Origin: an uncultured Bacteroidota bacterium
Lineage (GTDB): Bacteria > Bacteroidota > Bacteroidia > Bacteroidales > DTGW01
NCBI GenBank assembly: GCA_963851385.1
Contig: CAWKPE010000019.1
Coordinates: 24,355 to 88,354 of the forward strand
Direction: 5' to 3'
Length of the DNA stretch: 64,000 nucleotides
The position numbers were made by a program, and so were the translations under genes. The notes under the pieces are model-generated. The model did not search any database and had not been told where the DNA came from. It saw nothing but the letters and a program-made list of their open reading frames with translations. Shown here in pieces: positions 55,007 through 64,000 of the stretch; the first letter of the stretch is position 1, and the number at the start of each line of letters is the position of its first letter.

Positions 55007-55608
55007 TTTATTTTATTTTAAGTTAATTAAAAGCAGACATATTATAATACAAATTTCTATACAAAAATTCTTATTCATTAAATGATAACTTAAAAAATCA
55101 ATAAATAATAAGATAAATAATCTCTAACTGCGGGGACAAACTACATCCAGTTTTTCTTTCACCAAATTCAAAAGAAGCTTATCAACTATTCTAAAAATAG
55201 ATACGATATCGTAAAAATTCTTTCATAGTTATCTTCTATTAGCATTAATAATATTAAATTTTTGACATAATATATTGCAAAAAAGCAAATAGCTTATCAA
55301 AGTTAAAAAATATATTTCATACAAACATATAAGTTTAATAAACTAATCAGAAATAAAAATAAAGATTTGAATATAAGCCAGATAAAAAATATATTTGAGA
55401 CATATATCAGCTCAAAACAAAAATATTTTACAAAACCAAGTATTGAATAGATAAAATTTGTGATTTAAAATCAAATCATTTTGATTTGGTTCATCATAAC
55501 TATTACGAATTACAGAACTATCCCTAAATTGATAATGAAAAACTTAATTACCCAAATTTTTATTTGTTTTAAATAAAAAATGTGTGATATATTGTTTGAT
55601 GAAAAAAC

Positions 55609-55642
55609 TTAACCCTTGTAAAATTTAATTTACAAGGGTTAA
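55609..55642. other. perfect 14-bp inverted repeat (hairpin) at the presumed island edge
   Basis: TTAACCCTTGTAAA - ATTTAA - TTTACAAGGGTTAA. On the minus strand the hairpin is followed by GTTTTTTC, so it is terminator-like. Confidence 0.6.
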
Positions 55643-55715
55643 TGATTTTAATAGTAGCCCGTAGGGTATTACTTTTTTCATTTCATTCAATTTTATCTAA
55701 TTCTAATGTGACATT

Positions 55716-55748
55716 ATGAAGCCTAATAAATAGGCTTCATTTGTTTAC
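55716..55748 (+). terminator. terminator-like hairpin upstream of the integrase
   Basis: ATGAAGCCTA / TAGGCTTCAT forms a 10-bp stem with a 5-nt loop, followed by TTGTTT. No upstream plus-strand gene lies within 700 nt, so its role is unclear. Confidence 0.4.
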
Positions 55749-55794
55749 TAAAGGTATAATAAATATTATTACATTTCATTAGATTTAATCAAAT

Positions 55795-55827
55795 AGTGTA
55801 CGTAAATTTACCAAAAATACGTACACT
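55795..55827 (+). promoter_or_regulatory. 10-bp inverted repeat abutting the integrase start codon, enclosing a near-consensus -7 box
   Basis: AGTGTACGTA (55795-55804) and TACGTACACT (55818-55827) flank a 13-nt spacer. TAAATTTA at 55803-55810 resembles TAnnTTTG. ATG is at 55828. Confidence 0.5.
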
Positions 55828-58718: not shown

Positions 58719-60218
58719 ATGATAACCAAGTTGAATCATAGTGATGATTTACGCTTTTCAAGAAAATTCCTGTTGGAAAAATATTTTGAAAAACCTGCCA
58801 ATACCTTATTGCCGAAAATTCCACAAAAGACTATAATACAAAAAGTTACTAAGTCAAATAAAAAAACATATATTCAACAAATTCCAGAAAAAGTAAATGA
58901 TATATTTCCTGAAATAGTTGAACTATTGAAAGCAGAAATTGAAGGATTCACTGAAGAAAAATTAAGAGAAGTTATATCAATTGTTGCTTGTCATGTTCGT
59001 AGGGATAAAGACAATAATAATATCGAAACACCAATAAAAGCTGAATATATTAGAAAGTATGTGCCACGTGGTGACAAATATTTAAAGGGACTTATTGATT
59101 TAGGAATTATTCAGCGTTCCGGGAACTACAAAATAAATGTGATATGTTATAAATACTGTTTTGCTCCACAATATGTAAGTAAATATATATCGTTCCCCAT
59201 TAAAGATATGCACTTAATACGTAGATTAGAAAATGCTCAGCTTACTTTTAAAAAGAAAGCTGCTAAATCAGTAAGGAATCACTCAGAACAAACAATATAT
59301 CTGAATCAGCTAACAATTCAAGATAGTTTTATAGATTTTATAGAATCTCATTTTAAAGAAAATATAGATAAATATAATTATGCAATTGGATCAGCAAATA
59401 GGATTTGGAACGGTGATATTTTTTATTCAGTAGATAATACTTCAGGACGCTTTCATAGTAACATCACCAATATGCCAAAAGAATTACGACAATTTTTAAG
59501 AATAAAGAATGAACCGTTAGTAAACATAGACATTAAAAATTCACAGCCGTATCTTTCGACAATTATACTGACAAATCCAAGTAAAGTGTCATGGCTTACT
59601 CAAAATCCCGATTTTCAACAATTATTGCAAACTCTGAAGGTATCCCAAAATGAAGATGTCAAGAAATATATTTCCCTGGTTGTTATGGGTGAAATCTATG
59701 AATTTTTAAAAACTGAATTTTTGAAAAATAACATAATCCTTACCAGAGATGAGACCAAAAAACAAGTGTTAAGAATACTGTTTGCAAAAAACAGGATGCC
59801 AAAGGATGAAACAAATAAAAAATGTAGGCAAACTTTTATTGATAATTTTAAAACGGTTCATAAAATATTTTCCAAAGTTCGAGGTAAGGGGAAGGGCAAT
59901 AAATATCGAAACTACAAAAGATTCGCAATTTTATTGCAGCGAATCGAAAGTTATTTAATGTTAGATATTATTCTAAAACGGATTTATAAAGAATTGCCAG
60001 GCACTATTGCGGTAACAGTGCACGATAGCATAATGACAGGAATATTGACAAATAATGTTGAAGCTATAAAAAAAATAATGGAAGAAGAATTAACCTTTTT
60101 TGTCGGTTTTTCACCAAAAATTAAGATTGAAGAAAGAATTAAAGAAAAAAGGGAGAAAGAAAGAAAGGAAAAAGAGATAATGCAATACGGTGCCGGAACT
60201 TTTGTATGTGTCAATTAA
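58719..60218 (+). CDS. family-A (Pol I / T7-like) polymerase-domain protein with no exonuclease domain; putative island replicase
   Basis: By-eye motif alignment to E. coli Pol I. Residues 242-253 SGRFHSNITNMP match TGRLSS..PNLQNIP. LRQFL matches IRQAF. Residues 269-279 NIDIKNSQPYL match ADYSQIELR (motif A, Asp271 = nt 59529-31). Residues 315-329 KKYISLVVMGEIYEF match K..NFGLIYG (motif B). Residues 432-438 VTVHDSI match QVHDE (motif C, Asp436 = nt 60024-26). Confidence 0.6.
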   Translation: MITKLNHSDDLRFSRKFLLEKYFEKPANTLLPKIPQKTIIQKVTKSNKKTYIQQIPEKVNDIFPEIVELLKAEIEGFTEEKLREVISIVACHVRRDKDNNNIETPIKAEYIRKYVPRGDKYLKGLIDLGIIQRSGNYKINVICYKYCFAPQYVSKYISFPIKDMHLIRRLENAQLTFKKKAAKSVRNHSEQTIYLNQLTIQDSFIDFIESHFKENIDKYNYAIGSANRIWNGDIFYSVDNTSGRFHSNITNMPKELRQFLRIKNEPLVNIDIKNSQPYLSTIILTNPSKVSWLTQNPDFQQLLQTLKVSQNEDVKKYISLVVMGEIYEFLKTEFLKNNIILTRDETKKQVLRILFAKNRMPKDETNKKCRQTFIDNFKTVHKIFSKVRGKGKGNKYRNYKRFAILLQRIESYLMLDIILKRIYKELPGTIAVTVHDSIMTGILTNNVEAIKKIMEEELTFFVGFSPKIKIEERIKEKREKERKEKEIMQYGAGTFVCVN

Positions 60219-60312: not shown

Positions 60313-60531
60313 TGTACGCACGTGTGAAGATATTCTAAAATAGAATGTTTTAGAAAGAGTTTTCTTACACTATAAAAATGGTCGAAAAAAGAATTACTGG
60401 ACTTTCTTGAGTAGAATTATTAGACAGATACGCGCGCGCGAAGGAATATTGAAGTTTTTTACAGTCCATAAAAAGGGCTTATGTAAAATAGAACAATTTA
60501 GAACTAAAATTGCGCTCTTACACTATAAAAA
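60313..60531 (+). repeat. two imperfect direct repeats (GC-rich TACGCRCG head, then TAAAATAGAA, TTTAGAA and CTTACACTATAAAAA)
   Basis: Unit A is 60315-60378. Unit B is 60429-60531 and equals unit A plus an insertion of about 35 nt. The CTTACACTATAAAAA box is identical at 60364-60378 and 60517-60531. A third GC-rich head, TACGCGCGTGAGAT, lies at 61903-61916. Confidence 0.65.
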
Positions 60532-61124: not shown

Positions 61125-61214
61125 TAAATTCTAAAAATTTTCAAAAGAGTTTTCAGTGTATTAACAGTATAAATACAGTATGAATTCCAAAAAATTGCAA
61201 CGTAAATTCAACTT

Positions 61215-62179: not shown

Positions 62180-63337
62180 ATGCCTAATCCTCAAAATGAC
62201 AATTTAAACACTGAAGCAGACGATAAATCTTCTCTTCTTGCCTATGAAACAAGAGGTGCCAGAGAAGCGGCAAAATTTTATCCTGACTTTTTACAATATA
62301 AAGACAGAGCAAGAATCGTTTGCAATGAACATACACAAATAAGCCAGCAAGCTAAACAGAAAAAGATTGAAGGAGTTGAAAATGACATTGAGCAACAAAG
62401 ACAGATAATAGAAAGTAAAAAACTAGAGGTTCAGAAAATAGAATCAGAAAAAAATAAACACCAACTAGAATTAGCAGGCTTAAATATTGCACCGAGTAAA
62501 GCACCTCTTTTTATTGTTGGTAGTATAGTAATTTTTTTAGGAACTGCCCTGTTTCTTTTTTATGGACTTACATTGTCCAGTGTAATTGGAACACTTGTTA
62601 AATCAACAAGTGATCAGCTGCAAGGTCAGCAAATACAAGCTGCTATTCCAACATTATGGGACAACTTTTTAAAACTTCCTATTTTTCTTAAAATCATTTC
62701 TATTTTATTATCTGTTCTTCCGCTTGGTATTGGCTATTTGTTACAAGAATACAAGCAAAAAAAACAATGGCTTGGCTTTATTATAATTATACTATTCGTT
62801 TTTGTTCTTGATGTTGTAATTGCATTTGTTGTTGAAAAACAAATATACACTCAGGAATCATTAATAACCGAAATGAAACCATTTAGTCAATATATTAATG
62901 ATAGTATTTTAGGTTCATTTGGAGCAATAATATTGCTTGGGTTCGGTGCTTATTTAGTTTGGGGCATGTTGCTTGACTCTTTTTTAGAAAAATTAAATCC
63001 GCAAATTCATAAAACAAGAGTTGAACAGAAAATTAAATCTTTTGATTTATCAATTTCTATTTTAAAAAATGAAATTCAAAATATAGAAGCAACAATTACT
63101 GAATTTAAAAATAAAATAAAAGATTTGCTAGAATCTCAGATACGTTTATTAGACAAAGAAGCAGAAAAGGAATTGCAAAAGAATTTAAGTAACTATACTT
63201 CTGGATGGGAAAAATATATTATAATATATCATGGAAATGATAAACAAATGACTAAAGCTAAAATTGAGGAACTTTTTTCAAAAAAAAATGAAGTAATTAA
63301 GGAATTTAATGAAACCTTTGAAACAATAAAACAATGA
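62180..63337 (+). CDS. four-TM membrane protein flanked by coiled coils
   Basis: 385 aa. The N-terminal heptad-like region reads KQKKIEGVENDIEQQRQIIESKKLEVQKIESEKNKHQLEL. Four hydrophobic helices lie at roughly residues 108-135, 165-190, 197-218 and 243-265. The C-terminal coiled coil reads ILKNEIQNIEATITEFKNKIKDLLESQIRLLDKEAEKELQ. Confidence 0.65.
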   Translation: MPNPQNDNLNTEADDKSSLLAYETRGAREAAKFYPDFLQYKDRARIVCNEHTQISQQAKQKKIEGVENDIEQQRQIIESKKLEVQKIESEKNKHQLELAGLNIAPSKAPLFIVGSIVIFLGTALFLFYGLTLSSVIGTLVKSTSDQLQGQQIQAAIPTLWDNFLKLPIFLKIISILLSVLPLGIGYLLQEYKQKKQWLGFIIIILFVFVLDVVIAFVVEKQIYTQESLITEMKPFSQYINDSILGSFGAIILLGFGAYLVWGMLLDSFLEKLNPQIHKTRVEQKIKSFDLSISILKNEIQNIEATITEFKNKIKDLLESQIRLLDKEAEKELQKNLSNYTSGWEKYIIIYHGNDKQMTKAKIEELFSKKNEVIKEFNETFETIKQ

Positions 63338-64000
63338 AAATAATAACAGATTTTCACAGACAATATATAATTTATTTAAGTATTTATCTTATATCATCTT
63401 TTCTTTTATTTTCTTGTGTTACAGACACAAATGAATATTCAAAACGAGGAGGAGCATCTAATTTAGTCATTCCATATAATATTACAATCCTTATAGACCT
63501 TTCTGACAGAAATCTTTCTAATAATTATCCTCAACTTACAACTGATATACCTGTGAAGCATGACACAACAGCAATAAGAATTATTTTATCTGTCCTTAAA
63601 GAAACTTTTCGTTCATTGACAATAAAAGATAAATTAAACATTGAACCTGTTCATCAAGACAATTCAAATTACGACCAATATTATTCAGATAATTACGAGA
63701 AATTAAAAATTGATATGGAAAAAATTTTTCAAGAGTTGAAAAGTCAGGGAAAACCATGTCTCTCAATACCAGTAAGGAAAAAAGAATTTGACAAGCGTTG
63801 TAATACTTTAATAAAAAGTACTAGCGAATTAGAAAATATTGCCTTACAAAATCAAAATCCTTCAGGTGGTGATGTTACTAAATTTTTAAAAGAAAAACTT
63901 AAATACTATTTCAGACAAGATTATAAGAATGTTCTAGTTATACTTACTGACGGGGATGAAGCATTTAATAGCGATATTCAAAAGAGTAGAACAAAAATAG
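63334..64000 (+). CDS. lipoprotein with a vWA-like fold (partial; runs off the window)
   Basis: It is not in the ORF track because it has no stop in the window. The ATG at 63334 overlaps the upstream stop (ATGA). Lipobox FLLFSC. Segments NITILIDLSDR, SGGDVTKFL and VLVILTDGDE sit in the order and spacing of vWA beta1 (DxSxS-like), the Thr loop and the beta4 Asp. Confidence 0.5.
   Translation, partial: MKIITDFHRQYIIYLSIYLISSFLLFSCVTDTNEYSKRGGASNLVIPYNITILIDLSDRNLSNNYPQLTTDIPVKHDTTAIRIILSVLKETFRSLTIKDKLNIEPVHQDNSNYDQYYSDNYEKLKIDMEKIFQELKSQGKPCLSIPVRKKEFDKRCNTLIKSTSELENIALQNQNPSGGDVTKFLKEKLKYYFRQDYKNVLVILTDGDEAFNSDIQKSRTKI

Follow-up and report, generated by a model that had tools for sequence, protein, structure and literature searches.

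Minimal family-A-like polymerases carried by viruses and mobile elements were defined as a group, the TV-Pols (Transposon-Virus polymerases), by Iyer, Abhiman and Aravind (2008, Biol Direct 3:39; PMC2579912). These enzymes combine a bi-helical thumb, an Arg hairpin, a palm with two Asp residues and fingers with an RxxxK signature, and they are never linked to nuclease domains. Their hosts are viruses and mobile elements of several phyla, Bacteroidetes among them, and a subset with an extra N-terminal domain (TV-PolN) adjoins lambda-type integrases, resolvases or transposases. TV-Pol genes occupy the primase slot beside helicases; the proteins were predicted to be primase-polymerases, and an ancestral primase (RNA polymerase) activity was proposed for them (PMC2579912). 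One such enzyme has been studied experimentally: CcPol of the staphylococcal cassette SCCmec forms, with the small protein MP, a dNTP-using primase-polymerase (Bebel et al. 2020, PMC7581432). CcPol conducts template-dependent DNA synthesis de novo, which requires its polymerase active site, and no other TV-Pol had been characterised, as stated by these authors (PMC7581432). This finding was later extended to pairs of PolA and an SSB, a protein that binds single-stranded DNA, in Bacillota (Rice 2023, PMC10061031). Here we describe an open reading frame (ORF) that encodes a TV-Pol-type protein of 499 aa, located at 58719-60218 of a 64,000-nt stretch from an uncultured Bacteroidota bacterium (Bacteroidales, lineage DTGW01; assembly GCA_963851385.1, contig CAWKPE010000019.1). 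We refer to this whole stretch as the window and to the product of the ORF as the window protein. We estimate a probability of roughly 60% that the gene encodes a TV-Pol-type primase-polymerase, or replication initiator, of a small tRNA-targeting Bacteroidales island.

An initial annotation, made by eye from the sequence, had described a family-A-like polymerase core that stands alone, has no exonuclease domains and belongs to an integrase island, and had considered it unusual. The core and its setting were both borne out by the analyses below, and a tyrosine integrase gene indeed lies 1.7 kb 5' of the polymerase gene. The claim of unusualness was overstated: minimal family-A polymerases beside lambda-type integrases have been known as TV-Pols since 2008, Bacteroidetes included (PMC2579912), and the demonstration in 2020 that the TV-Pol member CcPol-MP is a primase further reduces the novelty (PMC7581432).

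A family-A-like core with substituted active-site residues

An AlphaFold2 model of the window protein was built from 30 homologues (mean predicted local distance difference test, pLDDT, 78.7; predicted template modelling score 0.73) and was confident from residue 50 to approximately residue 470. Foldseek searches of the PDB with this model returned only family-A polymerases among the top 50 matches, including Aquifex Pol I, apicoplast Pol, T7 DNA polymerase (DNAP), KlenTaq, Pol nu and POLRMT, with probabilities of ~1.0 and E values of ~1e-4. DNA polymerases ranked above RNA polymerases, and the best structural matches were canonical family-A enzymes (Pol I Klenow, KlenTaq, T7 gp5 and apicoplast Pol). 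Predicted viral structures (BFVD) were matched much more strongly, the best of them being A0A516L5C2 (E = 2e-20, TM-scores of 0.62/0.75). The phage proteins matched in this database were ~400 aa long, and one of them was a 403-aa 'putative DNA polymerase I' from an uncultured marine phage (E = 8e-17). Among the weaker BFVD matches were proteins with which two virophages, Zamilon and Qinghai Lake virophage, replicate; we take these to be of the Sputnik V13 type.

The catalytic motifs were mapped using E. coli polA, T7 gene 5 and T7 gene 1 as references, with residue numbering verified on the real sequences. We built a profile of 19 PolA sequences from viral contigs and compared it by hhalign with a 114-sequence profile of the window-protein family, which gave P = 0.0044 over 123 columns. 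In this alignment, TRDETKKQVLRILF pairs with the O-helix of Pol I (R343 with R754, K347 with K758, L351 with F762 and F355 with Y766), LLQRIES pairs with NAPMQGT (Q407 with Q849) and VHDS pairs with VHDE (H435 with H881, D436 with D882 and S437 with E883). Greedy extension of the alignment further pairs TSGRFHSNITNMP with TGRLSSTDPNLQNIP (R244 with R668) and VNIDIKNSQ with VSADYSQIE (D271 with D705). The motif order of canonical family-A polymerases is kept, and R343 and K347 also align with R518 and K522 of T7 DNAP. When single Pol I or T7 DNAP sequences were used instead of the PolA profile, hhalign was not significant (E = 0.1-0.3), yet it paired the right motifs.

This map agrees with most of the initial annotation. 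The three strings that it had quoted are found at residues 242-279 (SGRFHSNITN...SQPYL), 315-329 (KKYISLVVMGEIYEF) and 432-438 (VTVHDSI), and its placements of a TGR-like motif, motif A and motif C were reproduced by profile-profile alignment and residue invariance. The spacing that it had given for the two putative catalytic aspartates, 165 residues (D271 to D436) versus 177 (D705 to D882), was confirmed on the actual sequence of E. coli Pol I. Motif B was misplaced: the O-helix, with the pattern RxxxKxxx[F/L]xxxF and the invariant K347, lies at residues 343-355 (hhalign P = 0.004 over the segment that spans motifs B and C). We rejected the earlier position at 315-329, where the conservation of G324 and Y327 must have another cause.

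Two features that had been singled out as odd are real. Motif C reads HDS as in T7 RNA polymerase (RNAP), a likeness borne out on the real sequence (H811-D812-S813), and T7 RNAP is fully active with this motif. The steric-gate Glu is lost as well: the fifth position after the motif A Asp is a near-invariant Gln276, whereas it is Glu in Pol I (E710) and T7 DNAP (E480) and Gly in T7 RNAP. In addition, the position of Tyr766 in Pol I and Tyr639 in T7 RNAP is occupied by Phe355. With Gln276 and Phe355 at these positions, the sugar selectivity of the enzyme cannot be read from its sequence. Relative to canonical family-A polymerases, the protein thus carries Q276 for E710, F355 for Y766 and S437 for E883, it has invariants of its own (Y327 and E410), and its polymerase core of ~300 residues comes without a 3'-5' or 5'-3' exonuclease.

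The HDS motif and the missing steric-gate Glu raise the possibility that the enzyme chiefly synthesises RNA, either as an RNA primase or as a small single-subunit transcriptase for the genes of the element, and does not make DNA primers as CcPol does. Such an activity would fit the HDS motif in place of HDE, the Gln at a position where the dNTP-using CcPol retains Glu (PMC7581432), the ancestral activity proposed by Iyer et al. (PMC2579912) and a ~45-nt motif that is repeated 5' of the ORFs downstream of the gene. However, HDS is the sole feature shared with T7-like RNA polymerases. The residue at Asp+5 is Gln rather than Gly, the Tyr639 with which T7 RNAP reads the 2'-OH is replaced by Phe, and the Pfam RNA_pol family did not match the window protein. 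RNA polymerases also scored well below DNA polymerases in Foldseek (POLRMT ranked 50th in the PDB, and a phage RNAP reached E = 0.03 in BFVD). No promoter-recognition domain or specificity loop was identified in the protein, which has 499 aa versus the 883 aa of T7 RNAP, and the ~45-nt motif occurs just twice and was not seen 3' of the gene in 10 related loci. We consider an RNA-synthesising enzyme unlikely on this evidence.

The conservation of the protein was analysed across a large set of homologues. A word-indexed search identified at least 487 homologous clusters at 90% identity, nearly all of them of ~450 aa and 57-68% identical, and all named 'hypothetical' without a Pfam domain. When 1.84 billion representatives were scanned exhaustively with HMMER, 3,577 clusters (50% identity) were found at E ≤ 1e-3, 1,462 of them at E ≤ 1e-10. 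Among 114 diverse members (24-57% identity), R244, D271, Y327, K347, E410 and D436 are invariant, and at least 90% of the members keep T250, N274, Q276, P277, G324, R343, Q407, T433 and H435; Y327 and E410 are specific to this family. A second alignment of 90 distant members presented a pattern that agrees with the first. The ORF is not a chance reading frame, since its homologues are numerous and D271 and D436 are invariant. These comparisons show that strong selection acts on the polymerase gene and that its family is very large and unannotated.

The distant members of the family are themselves poorly annotated: look-ups of their clusters returned solely the name 'hypothetical protein'. No library (Pfam, PHROG or NCBIfam) revealed a nuclease domain in the window protein. 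Pfam DNA_pol_A did not match it at E ≤ 1, and a scan of the 90 distant members at E ≤ 0.1 did not list this family either. Two distant members of that alignment present HNH_3/NUMOD4 homing-endonuclease domains, one of them together with NUMOD1. With tblastn, relatives in phage genomes (24-30% identity) were found only in unannotated 'huge phage' genomes of 595-735 kb (LR756511, LR756501/03, LR745206 and LR756502/04) and in two viral contigs of 143-152 kb (L118 and L119); a Pinkberry virus match bore the annotation DNA methyltransferase. When IMG/VR was scanned for close relatives, none was found among its viral contigs, and just two distant homologues emerged, both in phages of 143-152 kb (L118 and L119).

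The ~240 N-terminal residues had been described as being of unknown nature. They resolve into a leader, a winged-helix-like domain, thumb-like helices and the Arg hairpin. Most homologues begin near residue 48, and only a few (P0041, P0047 and P0113) possess an extension similar to the leader. Modelled alone, residues 47-163 form a helix-turn-helix (HTH) followed by a beta wing. The top Foldseek matches of this domain are almost all winged-helix DNA binders (ArsR/SmtB, MarR, ScpB and Fur), and Rep initiators of staphylococcal plasmids are represented by their N-domain in complex with DNA (5kbj, 4pt7 and 4pql). The model is suggestive of a module, putatively related to TV-PolN, that may bind DNA or recognise an origin. 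Residues 164-235 match the position of the bi-helical thumb of TV-Pols (PMC2579912), as judged from predicted helices. In the Arg hairpin, R244 lies between two predicted strands (236-238 and 245-247).

The C-terminal end consists of a charged low-complexity linker and a conserved tail, as is typically seen where a peptide docks onto a partner protein. The tail has the consensus NQYxATTxVxxN, in which at least 90% of close homologues share Q489, Y490, A492 and N499, and it did not match the classical beta-clamp motif. Our guess is that it might bind a partner protein.

Relation to TV-Pols and architecture of the elements

The window protein presents most of the features by which TV-Pols were defined. 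Foldseek and the library scans point to a family-A-like core without exonucleases; the invariant R244 sits in a hairpin before the palm, aligned with R668 of Pol I; the two predicted palm aspartates, D271 and D436, are invariant and align with D705 and D882; and the RxxxK of the fingers corresponds to R343 and K347, located after the first palm strand. Like TV-Pols, the gene is also found in mobile elements with an integrase, two of which (9.3 and 12.2 kb) are delimited by attachment (att) repeats at tRNA genes. The tRNA-att architecture of these elements, including their HTH_17 and DUF5681 genes, is a result of the present analysis. The clade of the window protein presumably corresponds to the published Bacteroidetes TV-Pols.

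As a link to the published group, we took the Microcystis phage Ma-LMM01, a named TV-Pol host (PMC2579912), and searched the first 50 kb of its genome. MAP_030 (L117 22746-24266; 506 aa, 'hypothetical protein') adjoins two transposase genes and contains GLRxYE with the conserved Arg, NYD, K..NGA in a Lys-containing helix, SALLQRIE and QHDG. These invariants are the same set as in the window family, including the family-specific LQxxE. The profiles of the window family and of MAP_030 aligned with P = 0.004 over their full length, and their N-terminal halves gave P = 3e-4 across 180 columns (hhalign). MAP_030 has just seven detectable homologue clusters in a collection of 5.8 billion proteins, and it went undetected (E = 3) when the ORFs of the same 50 kb were searched with the hidden Markov model (HMM) of the family using HMMER. 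We infer that MAP_030 is the published TV-Pol member of Ma-LMM01.

We then compared 19 related loci from metagenome-assembled genomes of Bacteroidales, Prolixibacteraceae, Rikenellaceae and Melioribacteraceae. No other gene in these loci comes close to the polymerase gene in conservation, and it is the only conserved replication-type gene of these Bacteroidales elements. The core order is a tyrosine integrase, a variable ORF, an excisionase-like HTH_17 gene and the polymerase gene, often followed by a DUF5681 gene and then by variable genes. As clustered by BLAST, the integrase family is found in the analysed neighbourhood of 17 of the 19 loci, usually 5' of the polymerase gene, and the HTH_17 family lies 5' of that gene in 16-17 of them. 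The DUF5681 family occurs 3' of the polymerase gene in six loci besides the window (seven elements with DUF5681). The variable ORFs (173-405 aa) occupy the same slot in most loci, yet they do not cluster by sequence. An HNH-AP2 endonuclease or nuclease-like ORF is sometimes found between the HTH_17 and polymerase genes, and in two loci (L006 and L015) an HNH-AP2 endonuclease gene lies immediately 5' of the polymerase gene.

The ends of several elements could be located. In one locus (L003), an exact direct repeat of 42 nt, corresponding to the 3' end of a tRNA-Arg gene, flanks the 9.3-kb element, and in another (L018) a 20-nt repeat at a tRNA-Val gene flanks the 12.2-kb element. A tRNA gene was found at the expected end in nine loci: in seven loci with the integrase upstream, a minus-strand tRNA gene lies 3-10 kb downstream, and in two loci with the inverse layout it lies directly 5' of the HTH gene. 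Based on the spacing between integrase and tRNA, the other elements span roughly 7-15 kb.

In layout and size, the elements resemble phage satellites (att-flanked islands of about 5-15 kb) such as phage-inducible chromosomal islands (PICI), P4-like elements and phage-inducible chromosomal minimalist islands (PICMI): integrase, small HTH gene, replication gene, small phage-type gene and cargo, with the mapped elements located at tRNA genes and defence genes among the cargo. The cargo of the relatives comprises a TIR/SEFIR protein, a KAP NTPase and, by inspection, large ORFs resembling type I restriction-modification subunits. In addition to a prohead protease in one element, HNH endonucleases are present in others. 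The protease (L003 12276-12911) is clearly of the caudoviral serine type, with matches to Peptidase_S78 (6e-31) and to the PHROG head maturation protease (4e-35), and is encoded by the same 9.3-kb element as the TIR/SEFIR protein, a combination that hints at a phage-satellite lifestyle. Unlike phage satellites, the related elements present no consistent capsid, terminase, packaging or helper-interference genes. Known phage satellites carry primase-helicase or Rep initiators and not a family-A-type polymerase.

Three loci presented individual peculiarities. A 289-aa ORF (L001 9135-10004) overlaps the start codon of the polymerase gene and matches PHROG 6247, 'DNA topoisomerase' (1e-62); its motif GDYDPSGEDIP is toprim-like by eye, and it may be an alternative accessory replication protein of that element. 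At L009 3247-3608, two short fragments match polymerase residues 43-99 and 425-490; the intact copy lies 6.5 kb downstream of them, so a second element in tandem may have decayed there. A frameshift or an assembly error divides the polymerase gene of L021 into two ORFs.

The same loci bear on the possibility that the protein is an active DNA polymerase but not an initiator, serving in repair or gap filling at integration or excision, or acting as an anti-phage or anti-defence cargo effector. The defence-type cargo of the related elements (TIR/SEFIR, KAP NTPase and type I restriction-modification-like ORFs) would be in line with such a role, as would the fact that no origin, helicase or SSB is conserved beside the polymerase gene. 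In contrast, the polymerase gene is the most conserved gene of the elements and stands outside the variable cargo, in a fixed core beside integrase and excisionase, PADLOC did not match the protein, and TV-Pol genes generally fill the primase slot beside helicases (PMC2579912). We consider a repair or effector role unlikely as well.

The comparison with CcPol, a distant TV-Pol member, revealed likenesses and differences. Both proteins have a family-A core, come from integrative elements and are encoded in the slot expected for a primase. The N-terminal domain of TV-Pols is missing from CcPol, whereas the window protein has a fused N-domain. The operon of CcPol includes a helicase and serine recombinases, whereas the loci of the window type present a tyrosine integrase and no conserved helicase. 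CcPol keeps the steric-gate Glu of Pol I, whereas the window protein has Gln276, plus HDS instead of HDE. Finally, the recurrent neighbours in the 19 loci are HTH_17, DUF5681, HNH and nuclease-like ORFs, and not the MP and helicase genes of the PolA-SSB type.

The island in the window

The island region at 55-64 kb has a G+C content of 0.23-0.30, lower than most of the window, and its features are listed in Table 1. The integrase also matches XerD/XerC-like NCBIfam models (1e-15 to 2e-17). On its 5' side, a very AT-rich non-coding stretch of 820 nt (55007-55827, G+C ~0.23) probably contains the left att site of the island, and a terminator-like bidirectional hairpin with a 14-bp stem is located at 55609-55642. 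The frame that starts at 63334 is open to the last base, so the island extends past the window. No tRNA gene or att repeat was found inside the window, and no Rfam family was found within 54-64 kb.

Table 1. Features of the polymerase and of the island that encodes it (positions in the window).
Feature	Position	Strand	Basis or remark
Tyrosine (lambda-type) integrase, 408 aa	55828..57054	+	Pfam Phage_int_SAM_5 6e-14, weak Arm-DNA-bind_5
Variable ORF between integrase and HTH gene, 405 aa	57061..58278	+	No match in Pfam, PHROG, NCBIfam or PADLOC
Small HTH protein, excisionase/AlpA-like, 95 aa	58380..58667	+	Pfam DUF3853 5.8e-7, HTH_17 0.005
TV-Pol-type minimal family-A-like polymerase, 499 aa	58719..60218	+	ATG start; model, motifs, conservation
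Leader, residues 1-46	58719..58856	+	Predicted disordered (pLDDT ~30), missing from most homologues
Winged-helix-like N-domain, residues 47-163	58857..59207	+	Separate AlphaFold2 model, pLDDT 85
Thumb-like helical region, residues 164-235	59208..59423	+	Predicted long helices 164-185 and 216-230
Catalytic core, residues 236-470	59424..60128	+	R244 hairpin, D271/Q276 strand, R343/K347/L351/F355 O-helix, LLQRIE (Q407, E410), H435-D436-S437
Lys/Glu-rich linker and conserved C-terminal tail, residues 471-499	60129..60215	+	Low pLDDT
Paired ~45-nt motif (TAAAATAGAA..TTTAGAA..TCTTACACTATAAAAA)	60336..60531	+	Copies ~150 nt apart in the 322-nt spacer 3' of the polymerase gene
orf91, DUF5681 (phage-associated) family, 91 aa	60541..60816	+	45% identity, E = 1e-18, to an ORF of L015
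orf204, island gene, 204 aa	61215..61829	+	No significant family match in Pfam, PHROG, NCBIfam or PADLOC
ORF with coiled-coil and membrane-like segments, 385 aa	62180..63337	+	Weak coiled-coil-type matches; probably cargo
ORF open from ATG to window end	63334..64000	+	Frame uninterrupted to base 64000

The 16-mer core of the ~45-nt motif is exact in both copies and otherwise absent from the window. The second copy abuts the start of the next ORF, and a partial third copy (AAGAGTTTTC...) lies at 61138-61154, 5' of orf204. The motif could be a promoter or operator, or an origin element. The L015 relative of orf91 passes the Pfam threshold for DUF5681. We considered the product of orf91 as an MP- or SSB-like partner of the polymerase and dropped this candidate, as nothing supports it.

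A candidate primase-polymerase of tRNA-targeting islands

Our data show the modelled fold, the motif map, the conserved catalytic residues, the anatomy of the elements and their tRNA att sites. From the analogy with CcPol-MP and the position of the gene, we propose that the enzyme would take part in the replication of its element as a primase that may also bind the origin; any statement on its choice of nucleotide sugar has the same basis. The element would be excised by the integrase and Xis, the N-terminal DNA-binding domain would position the enzyme on the DNA of the element, and the polymerase core would start a strand de novo and extend it over a short distance, as CcPol-MP does. To complete replication, the element would rely on the helicase and replisome of its host, as it has no helicase gene of its own.

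Several results weigh against a TV-Pol-type primase-polymerase. Polymerase activity in this clade is itself predicted from sequence and a structural model, in which the global TM-score to solved polymerases is only ~0.3, and the P-values of the profile-profile alignments are modest. Searches of Pfam, NCBIfam, PHROGs and PADLOC returned no polymerase match for the window protein or the 90 distant members, and neither phmmer nor hmmsearch with the family HMM found a polymerase among PDB sequences. The catalytic C-terminal halves of the window family and MAP_030 did not align significantly, because the MAP_030 profile holds only eight sequences. The N-terminal domain was modelled as an alpha/beta, winged-helix-like fold, whereas TV-PolN was predicted in 2008 to be all-helical, and its best Foldseek match (E = 0.07) is below significance. 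CcPol needs its OB-fold (oligonucleotide/oligosaccharide-binding) partner MP to prime, yet no conserved helicase or SSB/MP-like partner was found in the 19 loci, where small ORFs were judged by sequence. Finally, in 10 relatives the region 3' of the gene showed no repeats equivalent to the ~45-nt motif and no conserved iterons or origin.

A catalytically dead polymerase fold, retained as a DNA-binding initiator or scaffold, is very improbable: the motif C and motif A Glu are both lost and some mobile-element 'Pol' partners keep little beyond a possibly vestigial RRM (RNA recognition motif) core (Rice 2023, PMC10061031), but the metal-binding Asp pair, hairpin Arg, O-helix Lys and motif C His are invariant or nearly so in the 114 members, as selection on catalysis predicts.

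A primase-polymerase of a small island could be part of a broader picture, which we put forward tentatively and regard as doubtful. The tRNA-targeting elements of ~7-15 kb might be unrecognised phage satellites or replicative islands of Bacteroidota with a self-sufficient TV-Pol as their single replication protein, which would constitute a mechanistically distinct third solution to priming. If true, the fused winged-helix domain would recognise the origin and the core, with its Gln gate and HDS motif, would prime de novo, perhaps using ribonucleotides. The enzyme would do so without an SSB partner or a helicase of the element, and this mode of priming would stand alongside the DnaG and archaeo-eukaryotic (AEP) primases and differ from CcPol-MP.

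The enzyme type and its association with integrase elements are already in the literature. What is new is modest: the size of the clade, the substitutions in the active site, an N-domain that resembles a winged helix, the absence of conserved SSB and helicase partners and the tRNA-att architecture with its satellite flavour. Family-A polymerases are normally unable to start chains, and only CcPol-MP of the TV-Pol type has been shown to prime, with a separate SSB-like subunit. The present clade differs from it at residues that set sugar selectivity. Characterising this clade would test the primase-polymerase prediction made for TV-Pols in 2008, indicate how a fused DNA-binding domain might replace an SSB partner and reveal how common small defence-carrying islands of Bacteroidales replicate. 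In addition, a profile of the family would better annotate thousands of 'hypothetical proteins'.

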